Shown: one piece after another, positions 12,942 to 59,256 of the stretch
How the letters are laid out: each line of letters starts with the position of its first letter
How positions within the stretch are numbered: the stretch's first letter is position 1
NCBI GenBank assembly: GCA_964525295.1
Contig: CAZGEO010000002.1
Location: forward strand, 258,551-322,550
Reading direction: 5' to 3'
Length of the DNA stretch: 64,000 nt
DNA from: an uncultured Candidatus Saccharibacteria bacterium
GTDB lineage: Bacteria; Patescibacteriota; Dojkabacteria; GCA-002793355
The notes under the pieces: model-generated
The model's database searches: none
Seen by the model: only the letters and a program-made list of their open reading frames with translations
Told to the model about the DNA's origin: nothing
Translations under genes and position numbers: made by a program

Positions 12942-15677
12942 TTACGTTGTTGTCGGAGTAGCTGTTGGAGTAGCTGTAGGTGTCGCTGTAGGCGTTGCTG
13001 TTGGTGTAGCCGTCGGTGTAGGAGTAACTGGTACAACAACATTGATGTTGATGCTATTTTGTGCAGTTGATCCAGTATTGTCTTTAACCACAGCAGTTAT
13101 GGTTAATGCACCAGCGCTTGCACTCGCAGGAACTACGCACCCAGAGCAGGCGTAGTTAGCAGAAATGCCATTCCATGCTCCAAGTGGTGTCAATGTTGTT
13201 CCGTTTTTGATGAAGTATTCAACGCTTGTAATGGCATTGATAGAGGTTATTGCAAGACGAACGGTAATCGATTGATTGCGATTATAGTTAGCATTGGCGG
13301 TTGGCGCAGTAAAAGTGAGTTGAATATCAGGTAAACAGGGGGCTTCTTCTGGTTTCTCTTTCCACAATCCATAGCCGAGTTTTTCTTTGACGTATGAATC
13401 GTAAGAACTTTGTTGAGCCTGATTGGGTAAAGTGAAATCAAGGAACATTTTATCGGTAATGAGCCCATTAGCTCTTGCTTCTTCTTCATTTGTCGCAATT
13501 TTGCCTGTTTTTGTGCAGATGGCAAGTTTCTTATGCGCGTTATCTTTTGCGGGCAAGCTTGTCTTTAATGCTACCGCGGGTGCTTTATCGCAAGGCGTGT
13601 CGCTGCTTGCTGCAAGGCCTGTATCTTTACAAACAGTTATACTTTCAACGCCTGCAGGGCGTGTATAAAACTCTTTTCCGTATTTAGGAACTAGTCGATT
13701 CATAATGTTTTTTGCTATTACGATTGGAACATTTTCAGACCAACCTTGTCCACGGCTACCTCGAGTAATGTCACCGTTGTTGTTACCGGTCCAAATACCA
13801 ACAGAAAGTCTTGGATAGTACATCATTGTGAGAAGATCTTTTGGTCCGTTTGTCGTACCTGTTTTTCCACATAATGTTTGCCCTTGCGCGGTGTAGTATT
13901 GAGGAACATGCTTATCTTGAGCACCTGGTGGCATCATACACATTACCCAGTTGAGAAGATAAATTTCTTCTTCTGAATACACTCTTTTTTCAGATTTCGA
14001 AGAATCTAGCTTGAAAAGCTCATTGCCTTTGGCATCAGTAATTTTAAGAATTGTGCTAATGTCATGTTTGACACCTTTGTTCGCGAAGACAGCGAAAGCG
14101 TTCGTGTGTTCAGTTAATTTCATGTCCCCTGCTCCGAGAGTTAGCGATAAGCCATATCGTTCGCGTTCAGTTAATGTTGTAATTCCAAGCTTTTGTGCTG
14201 TTTCGATGAATGCGTCAACACCAATCATTTGTAATGTATATACAGCTGGAAGATTGCGAGATTGGTTTAGTTGTCTGCGCATTGTATCGAGGCCATCGTA
14301 CTTGAAGTTCCAGTTTTCAGGTTTGTATGCACCGAAGTTCATCTTAATATCGGGTGCAAGTGAGCCTGTATTGTAACCACGCACGAATGCAGCGAGATAG
14401 GTATATGGTTTTACTGAAGAGCCATATTGACGAGGCATGATCGCAACATTTACATTGCCGTCAACTCGTTTGTCTGTTGTATTGTTGTAATCAACAGAAC
14501 CAACCATTGTGAGCATTTCTCCTGTTTTCGGATCGATAATAACGATTGAACCATTGTGAACTCCATACCAGGTTTTGAAATTTGAAATTGAATTTCTTAA
14601 TTCTTCTTCGGCAATTTTTTGCGTCTCAAGATCAAGTGTTGTGGTAACTCGAAGCCCACCATTACGAACTGCATCTACACCGTACTTAGCTTCAAGTTGT
14701 TCAATGACATAGAAGACAAAGTGTGGGGCTGTAATATCAACTTTACCAGGGGTAACAACGATTGTTTCTTCTTTCGCTTTTGCGATTTCTTCTTCTGTAA
14801 CCCCAGTTTTGTCTTTATATTTGAGCATGAGATCAAGTACAATATCGCGGAACTTTTTGATGTTTTCAGTTTTTCCGTTGAGGAGTTGTTGGCTATAACC
14901 CGTAGGGTAACGAATGATGACGGCTAACGTTGCGCTTTCTGCTAGAGTCAGATCTTTAATATCTTTGTTGTAATATGCTTTTGCTGCAGTTTGAAAACCA
15001 TAAATAGTCCCACCAAGTGGAACTTCGTTCATATAAATTTCTAAAATTTCATCTTTTTCAAGCTTCTGTTCTAACTGAAAAGCAATAAGAATTTCTTTGA
15101 GCTTTCTCGTAATAGTGCGATCGAAAGCTGCTTTTTTGTCAGTTTCATATAAGACAACATTACGAGAAAGTTGCTGAGTAATCGTACTCGCTCCACGCGA
15201 ACTTTGCGCACCTGTTCGAATATAGTCAATTCCTGCAGAAATTAAGCCAGGAACATCAATACCTTTGTGCTCATAAAACTCGATATCTTCTGCAGCAAGT
15301 AGGGCCCATTTGGTTTTGTCTGGTATTTTGTCTAATGAAATGTACTCGCGATTATAATCGCCATAAACAGTGTAGAGCAGTGCACCGTTTCTATCAAATA
15401 TTTTGGTGCTTTGCTCGAGATCTTTTGCAACAATTTCACCCGCATTTGGCAACGAGGCATTAATTGCCCCAATGTAGCCAGTTAAAACAACTGCACCAAC
15501 AATTCCACCGATAACAAGGAGAGCTGCTAAAACAGCAAGTGAAGTTATAAGTATTCGTTTGCCAGTGTGTTGTGAACTTTTAAGTTTTTGTGAACCTTTC
15601 ATTGCACTTTTGAGTGCAGTAAACTGAAAAGATTTCGGTTGTTTCGGATGTGAAACGATACGCATTGTAGTAGCCAT
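12942..15677 (-). CDS. Class A penicillin-binding protein (bifunctional glycosyltransferase/transpeptidase) with a C-terminal Thr-Pro repeat tail
   Basis: GT51 motifs (EDIEFYEHKGID, RGASTITQQL), transpeptidase SxxK and KTG, and an N-terminal TM. Confidence 0.85.
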   Translation of the reverse strand: MATTMRIVSHPKQPKSFQFTALKSAMKGSQKLKSSQHTGKRILITSLAVLAALLVIGGIVGAVVLTGYIGAINASLPNAGEIVAKDLEQSTKIFDRNGALLYTVYGDYNREYISLDKIPDKTKWALLAAEDIEFYEHKGIDVPGLISAGIDYIRTGAQSSRGASTITQQLSRNVVLYETDKKAAFDRTITRKLKEILIAFQLEQKLEKDEILEIYMNEVPLGGTIYGFQTAAKAYYNKDIKDLTLAESATLAVIIRYPTGYSQQLLNGKTENIKKFRDIVLDLMLKYKDKTGVTEEEIAKAKEETIVVTPGKVDITAPHFVFYVIEQLEAKYGVDAVRNGGLRVTTTLDLETQKIAEEELRNSISNFKTWYGVHNGSIVIIDPKTGEMLTMVGSVDYNNTTDKRVDGNVNVAIMPRQYGSSVKPYTYLAAFVRGYNTGSLAPDIKMNFGAYKPENWNFKYDGLDTMRRQLNQSRNLPAVYTLQMIGVDAFIETAQKLGITTLTERERYGLSLTLGAGDMKLTEHTNAFAVFANKGVKHDISTILKITDAKGNELFKLDSSKSEKRVYSEEEIYLLNWVMCMMPPGAQDKHVPQYYTAQGQTLCGKTGTTNGPKDLLTMMYYPRLSVGIWTGNNNGDITRGSRGQGWSENVPIVIAKNIMNRLVPKYGKEFYTRPAGVESITVCKDTGLAASSDTPCDKAPAVALKTSLPAKDNAHKKLAICTKTGKIATNEEEARANGLITDKMFLDFTLPNQAQQSSYDSYVKEKLGYGLWKEKPEEAPCLPDIQLTFTAPTANANYNRNQSITVRLAITSINAITSVEYFIKNGTTLTPLGAWNGISANYACSGCVVPASASAGALTITAVVKDNTGSTAQNSININVVVPVTPTPTATPTATPTATPTATPTATPTTT
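12945..13030 (-). repeat. In-frame tandem 12-nt repeat encoding (TPTA)n at the C-terminus of the class A PBP
   Basis: Periodic gtngctgtnggngt units on the plus strand. Protein ends ...TPTATPTATPTATPTATPTATPTTT. Confidence 0.6.
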
Positions 15678-18557: not shown

Positions 18558-19046
18558 ATGGTGAAAACTGGTGAAATAACACAATTGGTTGGCGAATACA
18601 CAGGAAAAGTGGTCGCAGGTCATCGTGTTGCGTTACCAGCGCCATTAAGAAAGCAGCTTGGTACGAATTTCATTATCACAAAAGGTTATGAAGGATGTCT
18701 GCTTATTGTTCCGGCTGATGCGTGGCAGAAGCTGATTGAACCGATGCAGTCTCGCTCATTCCTTGATAGAAACGTTCGTGATTCTATGCGTTTTCTCGTC
18801 GGAAGTGCATATCAAATGGCTTCAGATGCCCAAGGTCGTGTTGTTGTACCTGAATCATTGAGAGAATATTCGAAAATTTCCTATTCAGAAAAGCGTGAAG
18901 CGGAAGTAGTCTTCGTAGGTTTGGTGAATTGGGTAGAAGTATGGGAAAAGAAATCTTGGCTTGATCGCTCCAATTACCTTGATGATAATGCTGACGCAAT
19001 CGCCCAAGAATTATTAGCTACAAAATCAGAAGGAGGGAATTTATAA
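18558..19046 (+). CDS. mraZ: Transcriptional regulator MraZ
   Basis: Duplicated DxxxR-type repeats. First gene of the dcw cluster. Confidence 0.8.
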   Translation: MVKTGEITQLVGEYTGKVVAGHRVALPAPLRKQLGTNFIITKGYEGCLLIVPADAWQKLIEPMQSRSFLDRNVRDSMRFLVGSAYQMASDAQGRVVVPESLREYSKISYSEKREAEVVFVGLVNWVEVWEKKSWLDRSNYLDDNADAIAQELLATKSEGGNL

Positions 19047-20002
19047 TGTCAGCTTCAGCACCAAAGAAAATTTACCACGTCCCGGTAATGTTGAAGGAAG
19101 TTGTTGAAGAGTTTTCGTTAATTCCTCAAAATGGTTGGATTGTTGATGGAACATTCGGTGATGGCGGGCACTCAAAAGAAATTTTTGCAAAGCGAGTAGC
19201 AACTTTTAAATCAAACAAGCTTTTAAGTATTGATTGGGATTTTTCTGGTTATGAAGCATTTATGACTCATGAAGGTGAAAAGCCAGTACTTGTTGAACAA
19301 CTGTCAGCAGAATCAAAATGGGTTTTAATAAAAGATAATTTTGCGAACTTAAAATATATTGCAAAGGATGTCGCAGAAAAAACTGGAGAAGAATTCAAAC
19401 TCGCGGGAATGTTGCTCGATTTAGGAATCTCATCCCGACAATATGTACAGAAGCAACGAGGTTTCAGTTTTTCTTCTGATGGAAAAGCAGATATGCGAAT
19501 GGGTGAAGTTTATAAGGTAGCTGCTTACGATTTATTGAATCTTTTAGGTTATAACAAATTAGTTCAAATGTTTGAGCACACAGTTGGCATGCCACATGCG
19601 TTAGCAGCCAAGCTTTCACATGAGTTGGTTGCGGAACGAACTCGCAAGCCATTCGGAAACAACGATGATATTGCAAGATTGAATGCAATTGCCTATAAAA
19701 CAACTCCAATTAGAGCGAATTCTGTTGGTAAAATTCATCCTGCAACGTTGCTTTTCTTGGCATTGAGAATCGCAGTTAATACTGAATTGCAGAATATTCA
19801 AGACATCCTCCCAGCAGCATTAAAATATGCGATTCCTGGAGCGAAATTGTTAATCATGTCTTATCACAGCGCCGAAGAACAGATAGTAACTGAATTTGTG
19901 AAGAATAATAAGTTGCATGCTGAAGTTCTTTTACCTTCAAAAAGTGAAATTGTGAAGAACCCACGCGCAAGAAGTTGTAAATTAACCATAATCACAGTAT
20001 GA
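19046..20002 (+). CDS. rsmH: 16S rRNA m4C1402 methyltransferase RsmH (MraW)
   Basis: HVPVML and DGTFGDGGHS motifs. Confidence 0.85.
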   Translation: MSASAPKKIYHVPVMLKEVVEEFSLIPQNGWIVDGTFGDGGHSKEIFAKRVATFKSNKLLSIDWDFSGYEAFMTHEGEKPVLVEQLSAESKWVLIKDNFANLKYIAKDVAEKTGEEFKLAGMLLDLGISSRQYVQKQRGFSFSSDGKADMRMGEVYKVAAYDLLNLLGYNKLVQMFEHTVGMPHALAAKLSHELVAERTRKPFGNNDDIARLNAIAYKTTPIRANSVGKIHPATLLFLALRIAVNTELQNIQDILPAALKYAIPGAKLLIMSYHSAEEQIVTEFVKNNKLHAEVLLPSKSEIVKNPRARSCKLTIITV

Positions 20003-20286
20003 AATTAACAAAAATTGCTATGTTCCTGTTTGCTGCAGTAACAATTTTTCTTATTGCATTACAATTTAAAGTTTCTGCGCAATATGAACCAATTGCACAA
20101 GAAGTTGGTATGATGGATACTCAATCGAAAGCATTGAACACGACATATCTTGATTATGAAGAGCAAGGTGCAATTCTTCGTTCAAGCGAATTTTTAGCTA
20201 CTGAACGAGCGAATGGCTATGTAAATGCTCCTGCAAAAGTTTTGTATGTAGATCCTTCAGCTCCAATTGTAAGTAGCAATGACTAG
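19999..20286 (+). CDS. ftsL: FtsL-like cell-division protein (single N-terminal TM)
   Basis: Size, topology and position between rsmH and ftsI. No diagnostic motif. Confidence 0.5.
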   Translation: MKLTKIAMFLFAAVTIFLIALQFKVSAQYEPIAQEVGMMDTQSKALNTTYLDYEEQGAILRSSEFLATERANGYVNAPAKVLYVDPSAPIVSSND

Positions 20287-22144
20287 GCAACCTGTAAAAA
20301 AAGGTGTTGAGAGCATTAGTTCTAGTAAGCGAGTTCGCAATCTGATTTTAGGAGTTGTAGTATTTGTTTCAATTTTGGTTTTGGTGCAATTGTTGCGGTG
20401 GCAAGTTTTTGAATATGATCGTTTTGCTGCACTCGCAAATGCGCAGTTGTCAGCAGCCGAAGAAATATTTACCAAGCGCGGTACGATTTACACTCAAGAT
20501 GGGGTAGTGTTGGCGGTTGATAGTCCCTCATGGGATATTGTTATTTCGCTAACAAATGACGTAGATAAGAAGTTTTTTACTCAAACGGTTGCCGATGTTG
20601 AGGCCAAATATGCGAAGATTTTGGCTTCAAATAAAGATAGTGATAAGCAATCAGTAATTGATGCAAATAATACATTGAAAGAGCGAGAGCTGGGTAAAAC
20701 AAAAGAGCGCGTCTTTGCAAAGATTTCTGAAATTATTGGTGAACCTACAGAAACGCTAGAGAAATCGTTCAACATTAAGGCTATGAGTTATCAGGTGATT
20801 TTTAAAGGTATAAATAAGCGACAACGTGATCAACTTGATGCCTTAAAACTTCACGGAATTTATACAAATGATGCGGTTAATCGACTGTATCCGAATGGGA
20901 ATTTGATGGCACATATCATTGGGTATGTTGGCACTGACAGCAATGGTGAGCCACGTGGGAATTATGGTGTCGAAGGATTTTTCTGGGGAGATATTAAGGG
21001 TAAAGAGGGTATAACTCAACAAGAGAAAGATTTATCAGGTAAGGCAATTATCAGTAAAGAGTATAGAAATATTCGATATAGAGAAGGAAAGAATATTGTA
21101 TTAACGGTTAACTCAGGTATACAGAAAAAAGTTGAAAAAATTCTTGCAGAAGGAGTGCAAGAGCAAAAAGGTGATAGTGGTACGGTCATTATCATGGATC
21201 CAAAATCAGGGAACATTATCGCAATGGCAACATATCCTGATTATGATCCAAACGAGTTTTGGAAAGTAAAAGATGTTGGAATATTTTCGAACAAAGCGGT
21301 ATCTGGTCCTTATGAATATGGTTCTGTGCAAAAGCCTCTGACAATCGCAATGGCAATGACTGAAGGCAAACTAACAGAAAATGACATTTGCAATGACACC
21401 GGAAAAATGACTATAGATAACGAGACAATCTATAACTTTTCGTTTGTTAAGCACGGTAAGATAACACCTATGCAAACTTTGCAGTATTCAGATAACATTT
21501 GCGCTGCAGAATATGGTCTTAAAGTCGGAGCTCAAGCGATGCATGGGTATCTTATTAGATTAGGAATTGGATCACCAACAGGAATCGGTATTCACGAAGA
21601 AGAAACAAGTTTCCTAAAGGCAGCTAATAAATGGTTGAACATTGATACCGCAACCACTTCGTATGGGCAAGCAATTTCAGCGACGCCATTACAGTTACTT
21701 TCTGCGCTTTCAACTTTGGCAAATCATGGTGTTCGTATGCAACCAAAGCTAGTCGAAAAAATTTATAATAATGAAGACGAAATTGTAATTCCCCCAACGT
21801 CTGCAGGGCAGGTTTTTCCGCCAGAAATCGCAGATAAGGTTGCCGGAATGATGCGTGAAGCAGCAATGTCTCGACCAGAATTTAGAAAATATCGTAATAT
21901 TTATTCTATTGCGGGGAAAACTGGTACAGCTCAGGTTGCGAAATCCGATGCATCGGGGTATTATGACGATAGAACGAACGTAACATTTGTAGGGTTTGCT
22001 CCCGCAGAAGATGCGCGTTTCATCATGTTGGTGAAAGTTGCAAATCCCAAGAATGCTACGCTTGCAAACTTAACGGTAATGCCTCTGTGGTTGAAAATCT
22101 TTGATACAATCAAAGATGATCTTGGCGTGCCGAGAATAAACTGA
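20279..22144 (+). CDS. ftsI: Class B penicillin-binding protein / FtsI-type D,D-transpeptidase
   Basis: N-terminal TM, SVQK (SxxK) and KTGTA (KTG) motifs. Confidence 0.85.
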   Translation: MTRQPVKKGVESISSSKRVRNLILGVVVFVSILVLVQLLRWQVFEYDRFAALANAQLSAAEEIFTKRGTIYTQDGVVLAVDSPSWDIVISLTNDVDKKFFTQTVADVEAKYAKILASNKDSDKQSVIDANNTLKERELGKTKERVFAKISEIIGEPTETLEKSFNIKAMSYQVIFKGINKRQRDQLDALKLHGIYTNDAVNRLYPNGNLMAHIIGYVGTDSNGEPRGNYGVEGFFWGDIKGKEGITQQEKDLSGKAIISKEYRNIRYREGKNIVLTVNSGIQKKVEKILAEGVQEQKGDSGTVIIMDPKSGNIIAMATYPDYDPNEFWKVKDVGIFSNKAVSGPYEYGSVQKPLTIAMAMTEGKLTENDICNDTGKMTIDNETIYNFSFVKHGKITPMQTLQYSDNICAAEYGLKVGAQAMHGYLIRLGIGSPTGIGIHEEETSFLKAANKWLNIDTATTSYGQAISATPLQLLSALSTLANHGVRMQPKLVEKIYNNEDEIVIPPTSAGQVFPPEIADKVAGMMREAAMSRPEFRKYRNIYSIAGKTGTAQVAKSDASGYYDDRTNVTFVGFAPAEDARFIMLVKVANPKNATLANLTVMPLWLKIFDTIKDDLGVPRIN

Positions 22145-22159
22145 ACTGATTAATAAAAC

Positions 22160-23203
22160 ATGTTATCGCTATCACTTTTCATGGTTAAGGAACTCGTTTT
22201 ATGGGCATTATTGGGCATAGTAGCTGCAGCAATTTGGGTAGTTCCACTAATCGACTTACTGTATAAATTGCAATTTACTGCACAACATTTGGCTATGCCA
22301 AATAAAATTAACGCCGAATGGATGAAAATTCATGGCAACACAACCGGAACTCCAAGTTTGGGCGGAATTCTTATCTGGATCACCGTGCCTGTATTACTTT
22401 TATCAGTTTTTTGGGCAATTCCTTTGATGCGTGCAATAGGTTTCATTGTGTTAATTGTAGGTTTATACGGTTTAATCGATGGGATTTTGGATGTTGTTAA
22501 GAAAAATGATGTGAAGTTCAGGGAATTTCAAAATAGCTTCGAATGGCGCGTCGGAAAATTACTTGTTTCATTGATTATGAATGTCGCTGTTGCATTACTT
22601 ATTGTGAACGTGGCAGGCGTAAAATCATTCGATTTCTTCGGTATATCTTTTGCAATTGATAATGTTATTGGAATAGCATTTCTATCGGTTGTTGCTTCGG
22701 TGTTCACCTATGCAACAGAGATAATTGATGGGATTGATGGTCTTTCTTCTGGTATGTATATCATCACCTTGTTAGGTTTCGTGCTACTTATGCTTGCGTT
22801 GCCTGCGCAATTTCTGACTTCTGCTGCAACCTCGGCAATTTCTGGCGTTGGCGTTTATCTCGGAGTTTTGATTGTTTATTTGTACTTCAATATCCCACCT
22901 GCTCGTTTTTACATGGGTGGCCCAGGTGCGATGCCAATGGGGGCGGTTTTTCTGCTTTTAGGATTATTTGGAAATGTCGTTCCAGCCTTATTAGTTCTTA
23001 TGGTCCCGTATCTTCTAGATTTAGCAACCAGTTTTATACAACTTTTCTCGATTAAATTTCTTAATCGTAAGGTTTTCAAAATCGCTCCAGTTCATCACCA
23101 TTTCGAAGCAATAGGGTGGCCTTCACCAAAGGTTGTTATGCGTTTTTGGTTATTTAATATTGTGACAATCTTCTTAGCTTTAGCTGTTCAATTGTTCATA
23201 TAA
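22160..23203 (+). CDS. mraY: Phospho-N-acetylmuramoyl-pentapeptide transferase
   Basis: DGIDGLSSG and PVHHHFE motifs, polytopic. Confidence 0.9.
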   Translation: MLSLSLFMVKELVLWALLGIVAAAIWVVPLIDLLYKLQFTAQHLAMPNKINAEWMKIHGNTTGTPSLGGILIWITVPVLLLSVFWAIPLMRAIGFIVLIVGLYGLIDGILDVVKKNDVKFREFQNSFEWRVGKLLVSLIMNVAVALLIVNVAGVKSFDFFGISFAIDNVIGIAFLSVVASVFTYATEIIDGIDGLSSGMYIITLLGFVLLMLALPAQFLTSAATSAISGVGVYLGVLIVYLYFNIPPARFYMGGPGAMPMGAVFLLLGLFGNVVPALLVLMVPYLLDLATSFIQLFSIKFLNRKVFKIAPVHHHFEAIGWPSPKVVMRFWLFNIVTIFLALAVQLFI

Positions 23204-23209: not shown

Positions 23210-24226
23210 ATGTTCAGAAAATCTGCCCAAAAGAACAAAAACAGTTTTAGAAAGAAACCATCAGTTGCTCTTAACCGCCTAAATAATTCAGAATTTCGTA
23301 AAGGTTTAGGTAGAATTCTTCTCGTGGTGGGTGGCATGGTGCTTTTTTGCGCTGCAATATACGGTGGATATGTCGGCATTCGTAGTTTAATTGATTCTGG
23401 TTATAGACCAGGAAGTAGTACATTCGAGGCTTGTTCTGGGCAATTAACCTCAATTAAGGCAACTCCAATGTACGGTGCTGTATTTACGATTTCTGGTGAT
23501 TTAGTCGAGAAAATTGACATTACTGCACCTGATGGAGCAGGCCTTCACTCGCTTGAATTATCTGCTGATGCTAGGGTAATGGTTTATTTTTCTAACAACT
23601 TTATGTTTTCACAAATTGGTGAACTTTTACGATTTAGTAAACTTGAGAAGAACGCAATTGATTATTGCTTTTTGTTGGAGCAATTATCACTAACTACTGG
23701 GCTTCCTGTGGAATATATAATTGTTAATGATAAAGAAACTGGGGTAATTTCGACATTACCTCTTCGAGAGATTCGTCGAATTATTAAACAGGTCACTGAA
23801 GGGAAAAAATTAGCGTTCAAACAAAACCTTTTACCAGAGTATAGATTATCAGATGGATCTTCAGCAAAAGTTATTACTTATGCTGCGATGAAAGAACAAT
23901 TTCCCAACTTTTTCAAAATACCAGAAATTGCTCAAGAGCAGGCATTTGTCGAAGTCTATAATTCGACAAATATTGATGGTTATGCAAGCATTATCTCTAG
24001 AAAATGGTCGATGTTAGGAATTGAAATTTCAAGAGTAGGAAACAGTTCGCATGAACAACTTAGTGACGCTGTCGCAGTTGTATATGTTAAAGATGCGAGT
24101 AAGTATCAGCGAACATTAGCGATGATTAAGAGTTCACTAATTGGTGGTAAGGTGATCGTAAAAGAAGGTCGCCCTTCAAATGTGGTCACCACCGGAGATA
24201 TTGTAGTTTTCCTTCTTAAACGGTAG
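23210..24226 (+). CDS. Membrane-anchored protein with a C-terminal LytR_C-like domain
   Basis: N-terminal TM. C-terminal approximately 100 aa fit the LytR_C pattern (V.VYNST..DGYA....L...G.....G.....T.V.Y......A..I...L.GG.V......P....T.DIVV.L). Confidence 0.5.
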   Translation: MFRKSAQKNKNSFRKKPSVALNRLNNSEFRKGLGRILLVVGGMVLFCAAIYGGYVGIRSLIDSGYRPGSSTFEACSGQLTSIKATPMYGAVFTISGDLVEKIDITAPDGAGLHSLELSADARVMVYFSNNFMFSQIGELLRFSKLEKNAIDYCFLLEQLSLTTGLPVEYIIVNDKETGVISTLPLREIRRIIKQVTEGKKLAFKQNLLPEYRLSDGSSAKVITYAAMKEQFPNFFKIPEIAQEQAFVEVYNSTNIDGYASIISRKWSMLGIEISRVGNSSHEQLSDAVAVVYVKDASKYQRTLAMIKSSLIGGKVIVKEGRPSNVVTTGDIVVFLLKR

Positions 24227-24232: not shown

Positions 24233-26668
24233 TTGTCTATGGATCCGATACTGCTCACAGTCATAATTGTTGTTTCTTTGTTTTTATTAGTGTTATTCAT
24301 TGTTGCAATTTTTCCCAAACGTAAAACGACAGAGGCTTTTCCTGCAGGAACAAATGAAAAATTGGTAGGTGTCCAAAGAGTCGTTCTTCAAATAGCAGTT
24401 CCAAAAAATAATGACAAAACTCCACTGGCTGCGGAGCAACTGTTTGCTTCTCTACACGGCCTATACAAAGAAAGTGCTGCAGTAGCAACAATGAGCTTGG
24501 AGATTGCTTCAAATGCAAAGTTTGGCGTTCAATTTTATATTGTTGCAGAGAGTTCTCAAGTAGCTTACATCAAAGGGCAAGTTTACGCGCAATATCCAAC
24601 TGCAGAAATTTCTGTGGTGTCTGATTATATGGAGCAAGCTTTGCAATGGGGGCCTTCAATTCATGTTTCTGCTGGTGAGATAATGCTTGAACGAGAGCAT
24701 ATTTTTCCAATAAAAACATTTAAAGATTTTGATGTTGATCCACTTTCAGGCATTACTGGTGCTCTCAGCGAGATGAGTGGTGACGAAGAAACCTGGATTC
24801 AATATGTGATTCGTCCATATCCTAATATGTGGCAAAAAGTTTCTCAGAAATACATATCTGCATTAAGAGCAGAAGGCAACAATATATTCGACACTCCGTC
24901 ATTTTGGAAAACTTTTTGGGGAATAATTACTGGATTCTTTCGCTATTTTTTTGATTCGTTGACATATGATCCAACAAAAGTAACTCTGCCGACTAAACAG
25001 CCTTCTATACGTCTTGAACCATATCAAGAAGAAGAGATTCGTAGGGTAGAAGAGAAATCGCAGAAGCAAGGTTTTCAAGTGGCTATTCGAATTCTTTCGA
25101 AAAGTGGAGATCCAAATAGAGCAGTACAGCTATTTGAAGGAATTGCTGCCTCTTTTAGGCAGTACGCGACTGCTCATCTAAATGCATTTACTCTCAATTT
25201 GGCAAAACCAGCAGCAGAGGTCTTTACCAATATGAAAGAACGTTACATTCCAATTGCTCATGATGAAATCTTAACAATTGAAGAAATAGCTTCAATGTAT
25301 CACTTACCAAATACAACTGGCGGATCAACTTCACTGTTTGTAACTACTGCAGGAAAATTACCACCACCTGTTGATTTACCGATTAATGAAGGTACAGTCA
25401 TTGCGCAAACAAACTATCGAGGAGAAAATCAAATCTTTGGTATCAAAAAGAAAGATAAGCGCCGTCACACATATATAATTGGTCGTACTGGTACAGGAAA
25501 GACGAGTTTAATGAGAAACATGATCGTTTCAGATATTCTGGCCGGAGAAGGTGTTGGCCTTATCGATCCTCATGGTGAAACGGCAGAATTTATACTTGAT
25601 CATATTCCTGCTCATCGCGTTGAAGATGTGATCTATTTTAATCCTGGTGATGTTGAATATCCTGTTGGTTTCAATCCAATTTATGTTAAAGATCGTAATC
25701 AACGTGATCTTATTGCTGATAATATTATTGGTGTTTTCAAGAAATACTTCGATTCTTGGGGGCCAAGGCTTGAGTATATTTTATACAATACCATTTTATC
25801 TGCACTTGACTCACAAGGAACAACCTTACTATCAGTTCAACGAATGTTGACCGATGCTGAATATCGAAAGCGTGTACTATCGCATGTAAAAGATCCGATG
25901 ATTCATAGATTTTGGCGAGAAGAGTTTAGTATGATCGAAGAAAATCGCAAACTGCTCTCAGATGCAGTAGCACCAATTCAAAATAAAATCGGGCGTTATC
26001 TTTCACCGAGAATAACTCGCAATATCCTTGGACAAACCAAATCAACATTTAATATACGCGAAATGATTGATTCAAAAAAAATATTCATAGCAAACTTATC
26101 AAAGGGGAAAATTGGTGAAGAGAATACTTCGCTGTTAGGTGGTCTTTTAATTGCACGCATTTACACGGCTGCTATGGAACGAGTCGATATACCAGAAGAG
26201 CAACGAGAAGATTTCTCACTATACATTGATGAAGTGCAAAGTTTTACTACAGATGCGTTTGTCAATATACTCTCTGAAGCTCGTAAATATCGCTTGTCGC
26301 TTGTAATTAACCATCAATTTACTGAGCAATTACCAACTGAGATGCGTTCAGGAATTTTTGGAAACGTCGGTACAATGATTGCATTTAGCGTTAGTCAAAA
26401 AGATGCAACTGTTTTAGCCCAAGAATTTGCTCCATACGTAACACCTGAAGATATTCTTGCTTTACCAAATTATCATTTGTATCTTCGTATGGTTATTAAT
26501 GACAGGATTTCGGAACCTTTCAGCGCAGTTTCATTGCCTTTTAGATATCAGCCATTTGGTTACAAGGATATCATAAAACAGATGTCTCGCGATAAATATG
26601 CAGTTCCTCGCGATGTAATTGAAGAAAAAATTGCGCGTTGGGCTGAGAATAAGGGAGAAGAATCGTAA
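24233..26668 (+). CDS. FtsK/HerA-superfamily type IV secretion-type ATPase (VirB4/VirD4/TraG-like). N-terminal TM plus an approximately 400-aa unique domain.
   Basis: Walker A GRTGTGKTS followed by LIDPHGE (the DPKGE-type motif of T4SS ATPases), Walker B LYIDEVQSF, downstream HQFTEQL Q-motif. 811 aa. Confidence 0.6.
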   Translation: MSMDPILLTVIIVVSLFLLVLFIVAIFPKRKTTEAFPAGTNEKLVGVQRVVLQIAVPKNNDKTPLAAEQLFASLHGLYKESAAVATMSLEIASNAKFGVQFYIVAESSQVAYIKGQVYAQYPTAEISVVSDYMEQALQWGPSIHVSAGEIMLEREHIFPIKTFKDFDVDPLSGITGALSEMSGDEETWIQYVIRPYPNMWQKVSQKYISALRAEGNNIFDTPSFWKTFWGIITGFFRYFFDSLTYDPTKVTLPTKQPSIRLEPYQEEEIRRVEEKSQKQGFQVAIRILSKSGDPNRAVQLFEGIAASFRQYATAHLNAFTLNLAKPAAEVFTNMKERYIPIAHDEILTIEEIASMYHLPNTTGGSTSLFVTTAGKLPPPVDLPINEGTVIAQTNYRGENQIFGIKKKDKRRHTYIIGRTGTGKTSLMRNMIVSDILAGEGVGLIDPHGETAEFILDHIPAHRVEDVIYFNPGDVEYPVGFNPIYVKDRNQRDLIADNIIGVFKKYFDSWGPRLEYILYNTILSALDSQGTTLLSVQRMLTDAEYRKRVLSHVKDPMIHRFWREEFSMIEENRKLLSDAVAPIQNKIGRYLSPRITRNILGQTKSTFNIREMIDSKKIFIANLSKGKIGEENTSLLGGLLIARIYTAAMERVDIPEEQREDFSLYIDEVQSFTTDAFVNILSEARKYRLSLVINHQFTEQLPTEMRSGIFGNVGTMIAFSVSQKDATVLAQEFAPYVTPEDILALPNYHLYLRMVINDRISEPFSAVSLPFRYQPFGYKDIIKQMSRDKYAVPRDVIEEKIARWAENKGEES

Positions 26669-26684
26669 TTCATGTTATCGAAAG

Positions 26685-26712
26685 AAAAAAGGGGGCTTTT
26701 ACCCCCTTTTTT
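26685..26712. terminator. Bidirectional intrinsic terminator (aaaaaggggg-ctttta-cccccttttt) between convergent genes
   Basis: Perfect 10-bp stem with A-run and T-run arms, read directly in the sequence. Confidence 0.6.
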
Positions 26713-26739
26713 CTCCTTATACAAACGGAACAAAAGAGA

Positions 26740-28155
26740 TTATACCGTTGCTTCTGGTTCAGGTTGCGGTTCTGGTTCAAGAGCCTCAAGAATAACTTCC
26801 ATTTGATCTTGAGTCAAGACGCCTGAAAGTTTTGAAACTGCCTTCTTTGCGGCTTTTAGCATATCTTCTTGTGTTTCTGGTCGCTTTGGCGCCGGTTCAC
26901 TTACCGCATTAAAGATTTGATAGAACCCTTGAAGAACTTTATTTGTAATAGGTAATTCTGGGTTTCGTGCTTGAATTATTCCAGTTACCATGGCTTTAAT
27001 TAGTCTTGCTACTGTCTCGGCTGTTTCTGCAGTTGTACCAAGTCTTCCAACTGTTTCGTTGACAAATCCGAGTACTGCCTTGAGGTCTTCTTGCGGTACA
27101 TTTGAAACATCAATGTCGAACTTTTCTGCAAATTTGTATCCGTAATCAGAAAGCCCGTCACCAGCTTTGATAGCCATCTTTATTAGGGTCATAAGGCTAT
27201 CAAATTCATCAGCTCCAATTTGTATAGTTTCGGATTTCGCTCTAATGGCTCGAAGAACATTATCGAGTGTGCTGCCGTCACCCTCGGGTAATTCTAGGTC
27301 ACCCAATCCTAATTGTTGTGCTGCCTTTTTTGCTTCTTTTATATAATCTGCAATACCTTTTCTTGCTGCATCACCGACTTCATCTGGGCTTGCAGTATTA
27401 TTACTGTTTCTAAAGTGTTCAAATGCATGGCCTAAACCGAATATCGCAGCACCGCCGGCAATTGTTCTCATTACCGCTCTACGCGCATCGTCTAAGGTCT
27501 CATTGTCTTTAGTTGACGCTTTTATTGCTCTGTAACTGAAGAAAGCAACAATTGGCACTGCAGCTATTAAACCCTTTGTTGCTGCATGACGAAGGAATTT
27601 TTCAGTATTTGTTTCTGAACGACCATCTGCAGTATTGCGTTTTTCCCATTCTCTGTTCAACTCGCCAGATGCTATGACTGTTGCAATTACTAATTCAATT
27701 CCAGTCATTGCTTCTGCCAGTTTGTCCCAAATACTTTCTTTTTTAGGATTCTTATCAGTTTCTTTACTTTTTGGACCAGGGCCTGGATTCACTGGTGGTG
27801 GCTCAACTTCTGGAAGCGGATTAGGAATTGGTTCTTCTTCAAAAGTGAGTATAAAATCTTTATGGTTTTTCAAAAATTCAGATGCAACATGTTTATTATT
27901 TTCGAAATCTGTCGCTCTGACGCTAGCACTACGTGCTACCATAGCAGTTAAGAAATCTGAAGTTTCTGGACGCGGATCAGGAGCAGTTGAAAATTCGGTA
28001 ATTAGGGAACTGGTAAACAACTGGAGAGCTTTCTCTTTGTTCTCACCATTGTTTAAATATTCACTAAATACATCCATAGCTTCTGGTCGGCCAACTTCAA
28101 CTGCAGCTATAACAATTGCTGTTGCAAAACGAGCAGCGTATTCTTCTGCAGTCAT
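26740..28155 (-). CDS. Hypothetical membrane protein (471 aa; Pro-rich linker, 2-3 TM helices, largely alpha-helical)
   Basis: Long ORF with no recognisable catalytic motif. Second gene of a two-gene minus-strand operon. Confidence 0.5.
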   Translation of the reverse strand: MTAEEYAARFATAIVIAAVEVGRPEAMDVFSEYLNNGENKEKALQLFTSSLITEFSTAPDPRPETSDFLTAMVARSASVRATDFENNKHVASEFLKNHKDFILTFEEEPIPNPLPEVEPPPVNPGPGPKSKETDKNPKKESIWDKLAEAMTGIELVIATVIASGELNREWEKRNTADGRSETNTEKFLRHAATKGLIAAVPIVAFFSYRAIKASTKDNETLDDARRAVMRTIAGGAAIFGLGHAFEHFRNSNNTASPDEVGDAARKGIADYIKEAKKAAQQLGLGDLELPEGDGSTLDNVLRAIRAKSETIQIGADEFDSLMTLIKMAIKAGDGLSDYGYKFAEKFDIDVSNVPQEDLKAVLGFVNETVGRLGTTAETAETVARLIKAMVTGIIQARNPELPITNKVLQGFYQIFNAVSEPAPKRPETQEDMLKAAKKAVSKLSGVLTQDQMEVILEALEPEPQPEPEATV

Positions 28156-28541
28156 TATTCGTCCAAAAGATTTTTTGGATAATCAATTGGTGGATTTTTA
28201 GAACGAGCATCTGAACGTAATTTTTGATAAAATTTTTCGCCTAACCCAGTTAATAGGGGCATATCTTCAGCAATTTTATAAATAGTATTGATTGGAGCTA
28301 GAGATGCATTACTCTCGACACCAGAGAATTGCTCAGAAAGTACGTTAGAATGCAGTGTTCTTACCGCACACATAAAGTTTCTAGTGTCGTTCTGATCTTT
28401 CGAAATTGATGAGATATTTTCACGTCGCTGATTTACGCTTACGACAGCATCGATAGTTCTTTTTTGTCCATCTGGTTGATAGGTATATATATCATTGTTA
28501 CCTGATTTTGGTTCTGTAAATATTTCGGAAGAAATTTTCAT
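28155..28541 (-). CDS. Hypothetical protein (128 aa)
   Basis: ORF directly downstream of a canonical promoter. Stop overlaps the next gene's start. Confidence 0.45.
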   Translation of the reverse strand: MKISSEIFTEPKSGNNDIYTYQPDGQKRTIDAVVSVNQRRENISSISKDQNDTRNFMCAVRTLHSNVLSEQFSGVESNASLAPINTIYKIAEDMPLLTGLGEKFYQKLRSDARSKNPPIDYPKNLLDE

Positions 28542-28656: not shown

Positions 28657-29430
28657 ATGGCAGGACATTCACATTGGCATAATATTCAGCAAGCAAAGGG
28701 TAAGGCCGATGCTAAAAGAGGTATTCTTTTTACTAAAGCAGCACAGCAGATTATTCTTGCTGCGCGAGAAGGTGGTGGAGACCCCAATCATAATCTTTCT
28801 TTACGAATTGCTATTGATTATGCCAAGTCAGTTAATATGCCGAAGGATAATATTGAACGCGCAATAAAAAAAGGAACGGGAGAAGATGGTGAAGGACGTT
28901 TAGAAAAAGCAATTTACGAAGGTTACGGACCTTATAAAATTCCTGTTATTGTCGCAGCTATTACCGATAATAAAAATCGAGCAGTAAGTGAAATTCGTAA
29001 CATTTTTACCAAAGCTAATGGAGAATTAGGATCGATAGGTACAGTCATGTGGCAGTTTACTGAATCTGGGAGAATCATTTTACGCTCGGTCAAAATTAAA
29101 CCAGGTGAAAAATTTGGAGAATCTGATACAGAGATTGCAATTGATCGTGATGAAGCGACTCTAGAACTCATGGAAGTTCCTGAAGTGGAAGATATTGAAC
29201 TTGACGAAGAGAATAAAGAACAAATATTTGTGAAAGCGCCAACAACGCGACTCGCTCAAGTTGCCCAAGGTATTCGAGAGAGAGGATATGTAATTGTTTC
29301 ATCGGGGCAACATTTTGAGCCAAACAATTGGATTGATATTCCAGAAGATAAACAAGCTATTTTTGCTGATTTTCTTGATAAACTTGAAGATCAACAAGAT
29401 GTGCAGCATATTTGGCATGCTGCAAATTAA
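28657..29430 (+). CDS. yebC: YebC/PmpR-family DNA-binding regulator
   Basis: MAGHSHWHNIQ...KRG N-terminus. Classic yebC-ruvC pairing. Confidence 0.85.
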   Translation: MAGHSHWHNIQQAKGKADAKRGILFTKAAQQIILAAREGGGDPNHNLSLRIAIDYAKSVNMPKDNIERAIKKGTGEDGEGRLEKAIYEGYGPYKIPVIVAAITDNKNRAVSEIRNIFTKANGELGSIGTVMWQFTESGRIILRSVKIKPGEKFGESDTEIAIDRDEATLELMEVPEVEDIELDEENKEQIFVKAPTTRLAQVAQGIRERGYVIVSSGQHFEPNNWIDIPEDKQAIFADFLDKLEDQQDVQHIWHAAN

Positions 29431-29450: not shown

Positions 29451-29930
29451 ATGAGAGTTCTCGGCCTTGATCCTGGAATTGATAGACTAGGTTGGGCAGT
29501 TATTACTGAAAATGCTGCTTCATATTCGCTTGATAAATTTGGCCTCATTACTACTGATAAAAATAGTGATTCAACTGTTCGATTGGCTGAAATTGCAACT
29601 GATTTGGCAGAATTGCTGCGGCAATTTCAGCCACAAGTCGTTTATATTGAAAAATTGTTTTTTTCTGTCAATGCAAAGACTGCTATGACAGTTAGTGAAG
29701 TTCGTGGGGTTATAAAAAGTGTTGTTGCAAATCAAGAAAGACCTGTAAAAGAAATTCATCCGATGCAGCTAAAAAAAATGATTACCGGAACTGGAAAAGC
29801 TAAGAAAAAAGATATTCAGCAAGCAATGAAATCACTTTTTAATTTGCAAGAGAAATTTGCAACTGATGACGTTGCCGATGCAATTGCAATTGCCTACGTA
29901 GGAATTCTTGAAGAATTGCATCATATATAG
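29451..29930 (+). CDS. ruvC: Holliday junction resolvase RuvC
   Basis: MRVLGLDPGIDRLGWAV N-terminus. The track ORF starts 13 codons earlier, at 29412. Confidence 0.85.
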   Translation: MRVLGLDPGIDRLGWAVITENAASYSLDKFGLITTDKNSDSTVRLAEIATDLAELLRQFQPQVVYIEKLFFSVNAKTAMTVSEVRGVIKSVVANQERPVKEIHPMQLKKMITGTGKAKKKDIQQAMKSLFNLQEKFATDDVADAIAIAYVGILEELHHI

Positions 29931-41069: not shown

Positions 41070-41445
41070 GCTGGTTAAACATGATCACATATCCTTCGGG
41101 ATCTTTAATAGAAAATTCGATAGTGCCATAATTTGTGTGATGTAATGGCTGTATAAGGCAAGGGTAATTGTCGAACTGTTTGTAAAGACTATGAATATCT
41201 TCTACTTCAAGAAATAAGGCAATGGTCCCAGAAGTTTTTAAGTCAGCAAAGTGCGGGATTTCTTCTACAAATTCGTTGCGACGATAAAGCATTAAGGTTA
41301 CAGGGCCGTTTGCGATTATAGCGAAAAAAGCTGCTGTTTCTGGTGACGAGTTAACAATAGAAAAATTCAGCTCTTTCGTATAAAAATCGATCATTTTTTG
41401 CATGTCATCGACAAGCAATTCGGTGACTAGAGATTTAGCTTTCAT
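41059..41445 (-). CDS. VOC / glyoxalase-bleomycin-resistance family protein
   Basis: Two beta-alpha-beta-beta-beta modules of a typical glyoxalase fold. Confidence 0.6.
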   Translation of the reverse strand: MKAKSLVTELLVDDMQKMIDFYTKELNFSIVNSSPETAAFFAIIANGPVTLMLYRRNEFVEEIPHFADLKTSGTIALFLEVEDIHSLYKQFDNYPCLIQPLHHTNYGTIEFSIKDPEGYVIMFNQHGN

Positions 41446-42826
41446 AAGATTTCTTTACCTCTTGTTGAAATAGGTCACCACGTTCTTCAAAATTTTTGAA
41501 CATGTTATAGCTAGGCGAGGCTGGTGAAAGCAGACAGATTTTGCCCTTTGCAGTTTTCTCTTTTGCAAAAGTGACTGCATCGTGCAGTGTTTCTGCAAAT
41601 AAGGTAGTAAATCTCTCTACTATCAAGGGATTTTTCTTCTTCATTAATTCCCAGATGATTGCTCCTGAAGTTGGAAGAAAGGCAATATTTTTAACGGTCG
41701 AGGTAGGCAAGTATTCAGCTATTGGGGTGAAATCTATCCCTCGATCTAGTCCCCCTAGAATAATGGTATCGACATTCTTAAGAGCTTCTATTGCCTGAAT
41801 GGCAGCCTGAGGAATTGTTGAAATTGAGTCATCGTAATAGGCTATTTCGTTATATGTACCAAAATACTGCATTCTGTGAGGGAGTGGCTCAAATTCACTG
41901 ATAACTTGTGTAATTATTTCATTTTTCAATCCTAAGTGTTTTGCCACACAGATGGCAGCCATAATATTGTATAGATTATGCTTCCCAAGAAGATGTCGCG
42001 GTGACGCAGTGTCGTATACTGCTTCTGCACCATAATAAAGGATGCCGTTTTTCTCATAACATCCATTTATAGATTCACGATCGTTTGAAAAGAAGCTTTT
42101 TTCCCCGTTGTGCGTACTTTTAGCGACAAACTCATGCAATAAAGAATGGTCACGATTATAGACCAATAGATCGTTATTTCCTTGATGTAGGAATATGTTA
42201 AGTTTTGAATTAACGTAGTTTTCGAAAGTTCCATGGTGATCAAGATGCTCCTCATACAGATTGAGCAAAATAGCAATATGAGGTGAAACACGTGAGTATT
42301 CCAATTGATATGAAGACATCTCGCAAACAACGGTGGTTGTGGTGTTGAGGGTATCTATGACATCAAATATCGGAATTCCAATATTGCCAGTTAGCACAGA
42401 ATCAGGATTGGCTTTATGAACCATCTTATAAAGTAAAGCGGTTGTCGTGCTTTTGCCCTTTGAACCTGTAATACCAATTACGTTAACAGCGTTGAATTCA
42501 AGGAGTAAATCTAACTGAGAAGTGAGTTTTGACTTAACTTCATCGTCAATTTTTCCTTCTAATGCTATGCCAGGTGTTTTAATTATTAAGTCGAAATCAG
42601 GCAATACCGAAAGATAGTTTTCGCCAAGGTGCAACGTTAAGTTTGAATCGTTCGTCAGTAAGGGTGATTCTTTGACCTTTTCAGAGGCATCGGCAATCGC
42701 AAATTTTTGCTCTGGCAAATATTTGCGCAATAATAAGTAAGCTGATTGCCCTTCTTTACCAAAGCCCAATATTAGGATTTTTTTGTTTTCAGTCTTTGCA
42801 ATAATTTTTTTTACTAACCAGTTCAT
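41435..42826 (-). CDS. murD: UDP-N-acetylmuramoylalanine--D-glutamate ligase
   Basis: N-terminal Rossmann ILILGFGKEG and Mur ligase P-loop GITGSKGKSTTT. Confidence 0.8.
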   Translation of the reverse strand: MNWLVKKIIAKTENKKILILGFGKEGQSAYLLLRKYLPEQKFAIADASEKVKESPLLTNDSNLTLHLGENYLSVLPDFDLIIKTPGIALEGKIDDEVKSKLTSQLDLLLEFNAVNVIGITGSKGKSTTTALLYKMVHKANPDSVLTGNIGIPIFDVIDTLNTTTTVVCEMSSYQLEYSRVSPHIAILLNLYEEHLDHHGTFENYVNSKLNIFLHQGNNDLLVYNRDHSLLHEFVAKSTHNGEKSFFSNDRESINGCYEKNGILYYGAEAVYDTASPRHLLGKHNLYNIMAAICVAKHLGLKNEIITQVISEFEPLPHRMQYFGTYNEIAYYDDSISTIPQAAIQAIEALKNVDTIILGGLDRGIDFTPIAEYLPTSTVKNIAFLPTSGAIIWELMKKKNPLIVERFTTLFAETLHDAVTFAKEKTAKGKICLLSPASPSYNMFKNFEERGDLFQQEVKKSYES

Positions 42827-51695: not shown

Positions 51696-52622
51696 TCAAT
51701 ACCTTCGTTTTCTGCCTTTTCCGGCTTTGAGATTTGAATACTTTCTAAATTCACAACCTATTCCTTCCCAGTTTTCTGCACTAAGATATATAGGCTGGCC
51801 ATTTATGGTTGGGAGTAATAATTGTCTGTCGAATTTGCCAACTAAGTTCAGGTTAACCTGTTCCGGGGGCTCATTTTTATTCAATAATGCCATGATAGGT
51901 TTTGAGCCGGGGCCGATGGGGAATTCTTTATACAAATCAATGTATTGGGGGAATTGATAGGCAATATCTATAAGCACCTCTGTCCAAAGAAATTTTAACT
52001 TGAAACCAAATTCCGGCAGGATACGATCAAGTGCTTCGGTGACAGAGAATCTATTGAATCTCGAAATCGTTTTTGCGATTTTTGGAATAACAGTAGGGTA
52101 GTATAAACAAAAGAAATTTTCGCGCGTATTCCACTCAGAGCGTTGAATCGTGCTGATCGGAAATATATACGCAGTTCCATATTTAGGAGAAGGCAGACTA
52201 CGCAATTTTTCAGCGAGTTTAATGTTATTTTTATGGTTGAAATCTAGAAAACCAAGCTTGTCGATCGTTTCTGTCAGGGCGATACTCCTTGAAAAAAGCA
52301 TATTAAGTAACCAAAGTTGAAAGTTGGATTTCATATCAAGTTGTCTTTTGTGAAAGTAGAGGGTTTGCCTGTCAAATTCGCGGTAGATATTACAAAAGCG
52401 ATAATCGTTCAAAATTTTATCTTTTGTATACGGGCGAACTTCATTGTTCTGCTTCTTTTCCCAAATACGAAGTCGTTCCGCAATAAACTGAAATATTTCA
52501 TCTAAGACATGCTGATTTAATGAAATTTCCTTATTTGCTGACACAGGCTTGATAGTGTGGAATTCCCAATGATTGTATAGTTCACGGTATTGTCTTGGTA
52601 GCTCCATTGCAAATTTTTGCAT
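51696..52622 (-). CDS. Hypothetical protein (308 aa), unknown function
   Basis: ORF with a conserved-looking block W-x-K-x8-YTKD-x-IL-x-YRFCNIYREFDRQT. No confident assignment. Confidence 0.45.
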   Translation of the reverse strand: MQKFAMELPRQYRELYNHWEFHTIKPVSANKEISLNQHVLDEIFQFIAERLRIWEKKQNNEVRPYTKDKILNDYRFCNIYREFDRQTLYFHKRQLDMKSNFQLWLLNMLFSRSIALTETIDKLGFLDFNHKNNIKLAEKLRSLPSPKYGTAYIFPISTIQRSEWNTRENFFCLYYPTVIPKIAKTISRFNRFSVTEALDRILPEFGFKLKFLWTEVLIDIAYQFPQYIDLYKEFPIGPGSKPIMALLNKNEPPEQVNLNLVGKFDRQLLLPTINGQPIYLSAENWEGIGCEFRKYSNLKAGKGRKRRY

Positions 52623-59082: not shown

Positions 59083-59256
59083 AGACAGAATTATATCATT
59101 TAGATGATGCTGGTGGAAATAAAATATACTAAAGTGAAAGTGGGCTGACGGGGTGGGGAGTGGGCTGTAACTTCTTGATTAACCATGCTCCTTCACGTAT
59201 ACTGTTATATTGTCGCAATACATGATTGCGGTGAAAATAAAATAGAAAGACGCCCT

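Follow-up and report, generated by a model that had tools for sequence, protein, structure and literature searches.

What would a bacterium do with a membrane ATPase resembling those of type IV secretion systems (T4SS) when no conjugation genes lie around it, and why should its gene stand at the end of a run of division and cell wall (dcw) genes? The question is raised by a gene on the + strand (positions 24239-26668) of a 64-kb stretch of DNA, hereafter the window (64,000 nucleotides of contig CAZGEO010000002.1, assembly GCA_964525295.1), from an uncultured bacterium of the Dojkabacteria. A preliminary description of this DNA took the product to be a VirB4/VirD4-like ATPase with a large N-terminal domain found nowhere else, and suggested that it works in a minimal, repurposed translocation module, possibly with a link to DNA uptake or host interaction. 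As described below, the gene belongs to a family that spans the Patescibacteria, or candidate phyla radiation (CPR), and in which a motor assigned to the T4SS ATPases is joined to a domain that quite likely resembles the N-terminal domain of VirB4.

The ATPase motor

The open reading frame (ORF) that had been reported is real and, by the ORF list and its translation, runs from a TTG at 24233 to 26668, giving 811 amino acids (aa). The identical public product begins at ATG 24239 in the gene calls of public assemblies, and this is the likely start, so that the protein would be 809 aa long, with the TTG as an alternative. Residue numbers throughout are those of the 809-aa form.

The four motifs that had been pointed out (Walker A, LIDPHGE, YIDEVQ, and HQFTEQL) are each present in the translation. 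Walker A, GRTGTGKT, occupies residues 415 to 422 (25481-25504), and 22 diverse homologs all share its G415, G420, and K421. DPHGE (residues 443 to 447; 25565-25579) is paired in the HMMER alignment with the DPNGD motif of TrwB. In Walker B, LYIDE (residues 661 to 665; 26219-26233), D664 never varies among the same homologs and E665 is conserved at 90% or more, as are Q693 and Q697 of HQFTEQ (residues 692 to 697; 26312-26329), a conserved glutamine motif past the strand that follows Walker B. From these conserved motifs, including an invariant Walker A lysine and Walker B aspartate, the P-loop motor is predicted to be catalytically intact.

To which branch of the P-loop ATPases does this motor belong? 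The Pfam family TrwB_AAD_bind matches residues 402 to 723 with 33.2 bits, above its gathering cut-off of 20.5, and DUF87 scores 29 bits against 23.2, whereas FtsK_SpoIIIE reaches 18 bits, under its cut-off of 24, and matches the P loop only. CagE_TrbE_VirB gives no match at an E value of 1 or less, and the NCBIfam VirB4 model TIGR00929, whose cut-off is 643, gives 11.3 bits. Among the 22 homologs, which extend down to 31% identity, TrwB_AAD_bind matches 19, TraG-D_C matches 18, and T4SS-DNA_transf matches 9, while the VirB4 N-domain family matches none. When a profile of the family was compared with all PDB sequences, TrwB came first (E value of 1e-5) and DotL second, and no VirB4 chain appeared at an E value of 1 or less.

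Structure prediction adds to this picture. In an AlphaFold2 model with a mean predicted local distance difference test score (pLDDT) of 82.7, a P-loop motor domain of the type shared by type IV coupling proteins (T4CPs) and VirB4 takes up residues ~386 to 770 (25394-26548). Between Walker A and Walker B it carries an all-helical insertion (residues ~486 to 611; 25694-26071), the equivalent of the all-alpha domain of T4CPs. The C-terminal ATPase domain answers to the VirB4 fold, and the all-alpha insertion answers to a T4CP. On the strength of the sequence profiles and this modeled insertion, the motor is placed in the VirB4/VirD4/HerA branch and not with FtsK/SpoIIIE. Its assignment to the T4SS ATPase clade is supported, and the sequence profiles side with the coupling proteins. 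Its all-alpha insertion in the P-loop motor, its N-terminal anchor, and its T4CP Pfam matches are shared with the T4CPs (TrwB of R388, VirD4, TraD/TraG, DotL, and Cagbeta).

The superfamily named in the preliminary description is therefore upheld, with TrwB_AAD_bind above its cut-off and TrwB and DotL as the best sequence relatives in the PDB. The search against named profiles that it proposed came out positive for TrwB_AAD_bind and negative for CagE_TrbE, for FtsK_SpoIIIE, and for the NCBIfam T4CP and VirB4 models. A best match to FtsK/SpoIIIE, which it had named as speaking against a T4SS-type ATPase, is not what was found, because TrwB_AAD_bind lies above and FtsK_SpoIIIE below its cut-off, TrwB and DotL are nearest, and no conjugation genes are nearby.

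None of these is the strongest single profile match that any library gave for the ATPase core. That match is the PADLOC model mad8, from the defense system MADS, which matches residues 385 to 748 with 53.8 bits (E value of 5e-15); the PADLOC HerA and DndH models also match, and only in the ATPase core. This suggests that the MADS, HerA, and DndH defense ATPases and the CPR family may share a closer core than their Pfam names imply.

The membrane anchor and the N-terminal domain

How is the motor held at the membrane, and what lies between the two? The N-terminal transmembrane segment noted earlier is borne out as a single anchor at residues ~3 to 26 (24245-24316), the sole hydropathy window above 1.6, which corresponds to a model helix at residues 3 to 24. 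Since this lone strong hydrophobic segment is followed by KRK, an N-out/C-in topology is implied, in which the remainder of the protein would be cytoplasmic.

What follows the anchor had been described as a unique domain of approximately 400 aa. It is not unique: the precomputed annotation of the identical protein assigns the ~310 to 350 aa ahead of the ATPase to the Pfam family DUF8128 (PF26449). The domain, an alpha/beta fold at residues ~45 to 356 (24371-25306) that is predicted to lie in the cytoplasm, ends at a low-confidence linker (residues ~357 to 385; 25307-25393) where pLDDT falls below 50 at residues 359 to 371.

What does DUF8128 look like? Residues 30 to 384, modeled alone, gave a pLDDT of 80 and a predicted template modeling (TM) score, or pTM, of 0.77. 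When this model was searched with Foldseek, the 14 best PDB matches were all chains of TrwK, with E values of 2.6e-6 to 1e-3, probabilities of at least 0.99, and query-normalized TM-scores of 0.44 to 0.49; all other matches had E values of at least 5e-3 and poor TM-scores. At the level of fold, then, these predicted structures make it quite likely that DUF8128 is VirB4 N-domain-like, and the reading is supported by the collinear layout, an N-domain followed by a motor. VirB4/TrwK, the signature ATPase of the T4SS, shares this two-domain layout and a length of ~800 aa with the window protein. Some VirB4 proteins are fused to the membrane protein VirB3, and such fusions are analogous to the N-terminal anchor seen here. 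The window protein differs from VirB4 in that it does not belong to the VirB4 profiles and in that its gene neighbors are dcw, LytR_C, yebC, and ruvC genes, not VirB3, VirB6, or VirB8; moreover, Patescibacteria own a separate, bona fide VirB4 (SEML1_0008, for example). From the canonical T4CPs it differs by having the ~310 to 350 aa of cytoplasmic DUF8128 between anchor and motor. Neither PF26449 nor DUF8128 turned up in any paper of the literature library searched, and nor did a VirB4-like N-domain in Patescibacteria T4CP homologs.

A core gene of the Patescibacteria

How widespread is the family? A search of 1.84 billion cluster representatives returned 22,154 matches at an E value of 1e-3 or less, 5,972 of them at 1e-30 or less, and a single peptide pattern, counting one genome per species, recovered 598 species genomes or more, from many classes of the CPR. 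Named homologs come from Candidatus Dojkabacteria (WS6), a class of the Patescibacteria/CPR, and homologs from many other CPR classes align over their full length at 31 to 81% identity. A few matching contigs are labeled Chlamydiae, Bulleidia, or Gammaproteobacteria and are probably mis-binned. For synteny, 80 related loci were retrieved, of which 79 or 74 could be evaluated depending on the feature; their titles name Dojka-, Sacchari-, Gracili-, Peregrini-/Peri-, Buchanan-, Uhr-, Nomura-, Doudna-, Falkow-, Lipton-, and Moranbacteria.

A single fused gene encodes DUF8128 and the ATPase in 62 of 79 loci. In ~15 to 17 more the two are separate, adjacent genes, with DUF8128 directly upstream, a split form that occurs in Parcubacteria-type lineages (loci L059:7761-11093 and L050:7839-11204 and ~13 more). 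Compared with the window protein, the ATPase half of the split form is ~50% identical and the N-domain half 21 to 27%. Because the two halves are always fused or adjacent, and because the break falls at the low-confidence linker, they make up one conserved module.

The company that this module keeps depends on the class. In the Dojkabacteria there is a stable core of a LytR_C-like gene, the ATPase gene, and yebC-ruvC(-ruvA-ruvB), with yebC at positions +1 to +3. The dcw genes, including mraY, are found upstream only in relatives with at least 64% identity, in one of which an enolase gene separates mraY from the LytR_C-like gene; at 48% identity, Dojkabacteria relatives have a pseudouridine synthase gene and the LytR_C gene ahead of the ATPase gene, and in Saccharimonadia the ATPase gene is convergent to the dcw cluster. 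The earlier statement that the gene is embedded in the division cluster after mraY therefore holds among the closer relatives and fails at 48% identity and in Saccharimonadia.

In Saccharimonadia and several Parcubacteria-type lineages, the gene at -1 encodes a protein with Sigma70_r4 and HARE-HTH (helix-turn-helix) domains (42 of 74 evaluable loci). This protein is ~350 to 380 aa long and has further winged helices (for example, L053:6713-7855, L043:6359-7393, and L059:6632-7717), and its pairing with the ATPase spans several CPR classes outside the Dojkabacteria. The upstream gene of the other classes, at ~365 aa, is unrelated to the ATPase by BLAST, although single-linkage clustering had joined the two; it is the Sigma70_r4/HARE-HTH gene. 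Further upstream, topA occurs within six genes in 31 of 79 loci and dprA in 20 of 79. A convergent dcw cluster (ftsQ-like, murG in some, ftsW, mraY, ftsI, and ftsL) lies within eight genes downstream in 26 of 79 loci, all of other classes. The family is thus a pan-Patescibacteria chromosomal core gene, not a remnant of conjugation.

Has this family been seen before? It has, as it is already cataloged in the literature as T4CP homologs that are mostly unlinked to virB4. A survey counted 5,713 VirD4-type T4CP homologs in 2,918 of 3,035 Patescibacteria genomes, 148 of them near virB4, and found VirB4 in 2,417 genomes and in 18 of the 20 classes; its authors observed that the homolog of Southlakia epibionticum is nonessential and suggested exaptation (Quinonero-Coronel et al. 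2025, PMC12102498). In S. epibionticum ML1, the gene SEML1_0293 was flagged as core and Patescibacteria enriched, with Pfam matches to PF10412 (402-719), PF12696 (655-716), and PF01935 (405-618) (Wang et al. 2023, PMC10633639). Transposon sequencing scored it nonessential in all three calls (NE/NE/NE), although normalized reads dropped from 5817 to 2940 to 1372 between T0 and T2, whereas the T4SS and the pilins are essential; also essential are topA, the upstream HTH gene SEML1_0294 (annotated as RpoS), and a canonical FtsK, SEML1_0096, with four transmembrane helices and alpha, motor, and gamma domains. In the same data dprA is close by, and the VirB4 of the T4SS is a separate gene, SEML1_0008 (PMC10633639).

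Judging by domains and synteny, SEML1_0293 and the other Patescibacteria T4CP homologs appear to belong to the same family as the window protein. The Pfam domains fall at the same residues, and the order dprA, topA, Sigma70_r4/HARE-HTH gene, and ATPase gene is that of the Saccharimonadia loci. The Saccharimonadia proteins differ in being longer (~880 to 920 aa, with an extended C terminus) and in having the HTH protein upstream and not the LytR_C protein. SEML1_0293 is also two genes away from a type II CRISPR-Cas9 locus (cas9, cas1, and cas2; region SEML1_0289-0293) with a GNAT gene between, a proximity that is probably coincidental. What is added here to the published record is the predicted VirB4-like character of DUF8128, the fused/split module, the class-specific neighborhoods, the exclusion of an FtsK-type identity, and an argument against an FtsK-like role.

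What might the ATPase do?

The explanation that we put forward, tentatively and with somewhat less than an even chance of being right, is an accessory motor that couples substrates to a T4SS and docks through its VirB4-like N-domain. As its relatives do, the protein would form an ATPase ring on the membrane's inner face. There it would feed substrates to the chromosomal Patescibacteria T4SS encoded elsewhere in the genome, and docking would take place via the VirB4-like N-domain and not the usual two-helix membrane domain. DNA or nucleoprotein would be slightly favored as the substrate because DNA-processing genes recur among the neighbors (yebC-ruvCAB here, dprA-topA and the HTH protein in other classes). 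A canonical T4CP is dispensable for pilus biogenesis and needed for substrate transfer. A coupling motor fits what is seen in S. epibionticum, since the T4SS and the pilins are essential there and SEML1_0293, like a canonical T4CP, is not. Where, then, is the T4SS of the present bacterium? It is probably elsewhere in the genome, because the Dojkabacteria assemblies shown in Table S1 of the survey are VirB4 positive (PMC12102498).

Several observations weigh against an accessory coupling motor. The NCBIfam conjugation models (TraD, the CD1115 VirD4-like family, and the VirB4 equivalogs) all score far under their cut-offs, and where canonical T4CPs have two transmembrane helices ahead of the nucleotide-binding domain, the window protein has one. 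As noted in the preliminary description, no relaxase, VirB6, or other VirB-type or conjugation gene lies within the 64-kb window, and the ATPase gene is unlinked to virB4 both here and in the sampled loci; it differs from T4CP genes in having no adjacent relaxase, accessory DNA transfer and replication (Dtr), or mating pair formation (Mpf) genes and in being chromosomal core and not part of a plasmid or an integrative and conjugative element. At the S. epibionticum T4SS locus, according to the authors, there is no recognizable coupling protein (PMC10633639). Some carriers of T4CP homologs may lack a T4SS altogether, since these homologs occur in 2,918 genomes and VirB4 in 2,417. Finally, the link between DUF8128 and the VirB4 N-domain comes from predicted structures only, at TM-scores of ~0.45 to 0.49. 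A DUF8128 profile gave no VirB4 N-domain signal in an hmmsearch of PDB sequences, and hhalign was negative both for DUF8128 against the TrwK N-domain (E value of 0.65) and for a 23-sequence DUF8128 profile against a 12-sequence profile of TrwK-type N-domains (E value of 0.18). With no signal in any of the three tests, homology at the sequence level was rejected; the structure prediction advised for the N terminus thus gave a VirB4-N-like fold, with Foldseek pointing to TrwK, and the sequence profiles were negative.

A bolder proposal, speculative and rather unlikely, is that the DUF8128/T4CP-like family is a third, previously unrecognized branch of T4SS ATPases, an evolutionary intermediate that unites a VirB4-type docking N-domain with a coupling-type motor and is fixed in the core genome for a nonconjugative housekeeping task. 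If so, the task could be the feeding of DNA or nucleoprotein, or the import of nucleic acids via the essential T4SS of CPR bacteria or the competence machinery of these episymbionts, which are auxotrophic for nucleotides, and the family would bear on the origin of T4CPs from VirB4-like ancestors.

Why does this matter? Patescibacteria are host dependent and cannot do without their T4SS. Because this second T4SS-type ATPase is found in almost every genome and is unlinked to the T4SS locus, it is an obvious candidate to be the missing substrate motor or to handle nucleic acids. Three results can serve as concrete hypotheses for the genetically tractable Saccharibacteria: (i) the protein is not an FtsK or a conjugation relic, (ii) its N-domain looks like the domain with which VirB4 docks, and (iii) DUF8128 and the motor are one module. 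For annotation, the name DUF8128-containing T4CP-like ATPase would suit, and the gene should not be taken to indicate a mobile element or a division gene.

Competing explanations and the neighboring genes

Could the ATPase act on DNA without any T4SS? It might be a membrane-anchored DNA translocase or remodeling ATPase, exapted from a T4CP/VirB4 ancestor and, for example, drawing in or passing on DNA in natural transformation (with ComEC/DprA) or acting on recombination intermediates, which is possible and, on balance, doubtful. In its favor, yebC (28657-29430, +) and ruvC (29451-29930, +), identified by Pfam, are the conserved downstream neighbors in the Dojkabacteria, where loci may continue with ruvA and ruvB; the counts of dprA and topA upstream in other classes, and of the DNA-binding HTH protein at -1, have been given above. 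The greater spread of T4CP homologs relative to VirB4 agrees with a T4SS-independent role, exaptation was raised in the survey itself, and the nonessentiality of SEML1_0293 parallels that of competence (comEC), dispensable in the same organism. Against such a motor, the neighbors differ between classes. Both dprA-topA and yebC-ruvCAB are widespread bacterial housekeeping arrangements, so the adjacency to DNA genes may be inherited gene order. Furthermore, the HTH neighbor is essential and the ATPase is not, which means that the two are not strictly cofunctional.

A second possibility, an improbable one, is a chromosome pump coupled to division that acts at the septum like FtsK/SpoIIIE or SftA. 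The local gene order is what brings it to mind. The gene directly upstream (23210-24226, +) encodes a 338-aa single-pass membrane protein, hydrophobic at residues ~32 to 50, with a weak C-terminal LytR_C match (E value of 0.002 here and 1e-10 in the ortholog at locus L006), and is the conserved -1 neighbor in Dojkabacteria loci. From mraY to this gene to the ATPase gene, the gaps are 6 to 12 nucleotides (nt). As the spacing is tight and the terminator stands solely after the ATPase gene, the latter is probably the last gene of a codirectional mraZ-rsmH-ftsL-ftsI-mraY-lytR_C operon. The convergent dcw genes found within eight genes in other classes (26 of 79 loci), and the nearby ruvC, could be added, and with FtsK/SpoIIIE the protein shares the superfamily, a membrane anchor, and, in this genome, the adjacency to division genes. 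It lacks what would make it an FtsK, namely the motor profile (FtsK_SpoIIIE under its cut-off), the N-domain with four transmembrane helices, and the gamma domain, and the dcw adjacency is gone at 48% identity. S. epibionticum has its canonical, essential FtsK SEML1_0096 next to a nonessential SEML1_0293, and this coexistence, with the poor fit of fold and profile scores, led to the rejection of an FtsK replacement. The placement at the end of the operon is lineage specific and no sign of a division function.

What of the genes on the other side? The preliminary description can be read as joining the ATPase and the two proteins encoded downstream into one minimal translocation module that stands alone. 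The genes do lie near one another and have a terminator in common, a hairpin with a 13-bp stem (A6-G5-CTTTTA-C5-T6; 26683-26714) inside a 71-nt spacer, with a folding energy of -20.4 kcal/mol and a z score of -3.06. A simple consensus terminator scanner did not list it, and folding confirmed it; flanked by A and T runs, it is credible as the bidirectional terminator that had been proposed. Beyond it, two ORFs on the - strand (26740-28541) converge on the ATPase gene and encode proteins of 471 aa (26740-28155) and 128 aa (28155-28541), neither of which matches a family in Pfam, NCBIfam, or PADLOC. They had been called an operon of two membrane proteins. The convergent ORFs are there, and their membrane nature is not established by hydropathy, which shows three weakly hydrophobic segments in the 471-aa protein (Kyte-Doolittle values of 1.2 to 1.5) and none in the 128-aa protein. 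Neither ORF has a homolog in the 80 related loci, and in relatives at 78%, 64%, and 48% identity they are replaced or absent, while across the phylum the ATPase family is conserved in their absence. The two ORFs form an insertion that is variable and lineage specific, and as partners of the ATPase they were rejected because they are not conserved. With Dojkabacteria being VirB4 positive besides, a minimal repurposed module is highly unlikely.

In the relative at 78% identity, the slot between the ATPase gene and yebC is filled by a 735-aa ORF (L086:10601-12808, -); it is empty in others, including those at 64% and 48%. That ORF has the layout of the window ORFs (a Pro/Glu-rich linker, three weakly hydrophobic helices, and a helical C terminus), with no significant sequence similarity to them. 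ORFs in this slot appear to evolve fast.

A component of antiphage defense akin to HerA, DndH/DptH, or mad8 is the least credible idea and can be dismissed, since its sole basis is the ATPase core, whose fold and detectable profile similarity the C-terminal domain of DptH/DndH, mad8, and HerA share, and since the matches are confined to that core, the N-terminal architecture is different, no partner or other defense genes are nearby, and a single-copy gene of the core genome, in stable housekeeping surroundings throughout the phylum, is unlike the mobile, patchy defense islands.

Other features of the window

The 64 kb around the accessory coupling motor proposed here is all housekeeping: aminoacyl-tRNA synthetases, penicillin-binding proteins (PBPs), recG, mraZ-rsmH-ftsL-ftsI-mraY, yebC-ruvC, a Mur ligase, Suf, Obg, pilM, and ftsQ/ftsA. 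Within it, the division and cell wall cluster is fragmented. The genes mraZ-rsmH-ftsL-ftsI-mraY stand together (18558-23203), a MurD-like ligase (41435-42826, -) is 18 kb from the mra genes and on the opposite strand, and an ftsQ-like gene and ftsA (59185-63826) follow a further 20 kb on, straight after a pilM-like gene and two ORFs of unknown nature.

A look-up of the protein at 42823-44244 found nothing on public record. The public gene call attaches no precomputed Pfam annotation to a 911-aa class A PBP (12942-15677, -), which has transglycosylase and transpeptidase domains and a C-terminal bacterial Ig-like Big_7 domain. Lastly, a 308-aa protein (51696-52622, -) carries HMUDK_hel, the helical domain of 5-hydroxymethyldeoxyuridine (5-hmdU) DNA kinase (E value of 1e-19); it sits among chromosomal CPR genes, and the 5-hmdU DNA kinase family is typical of phage pathways for the hypermodification of DNA bases.

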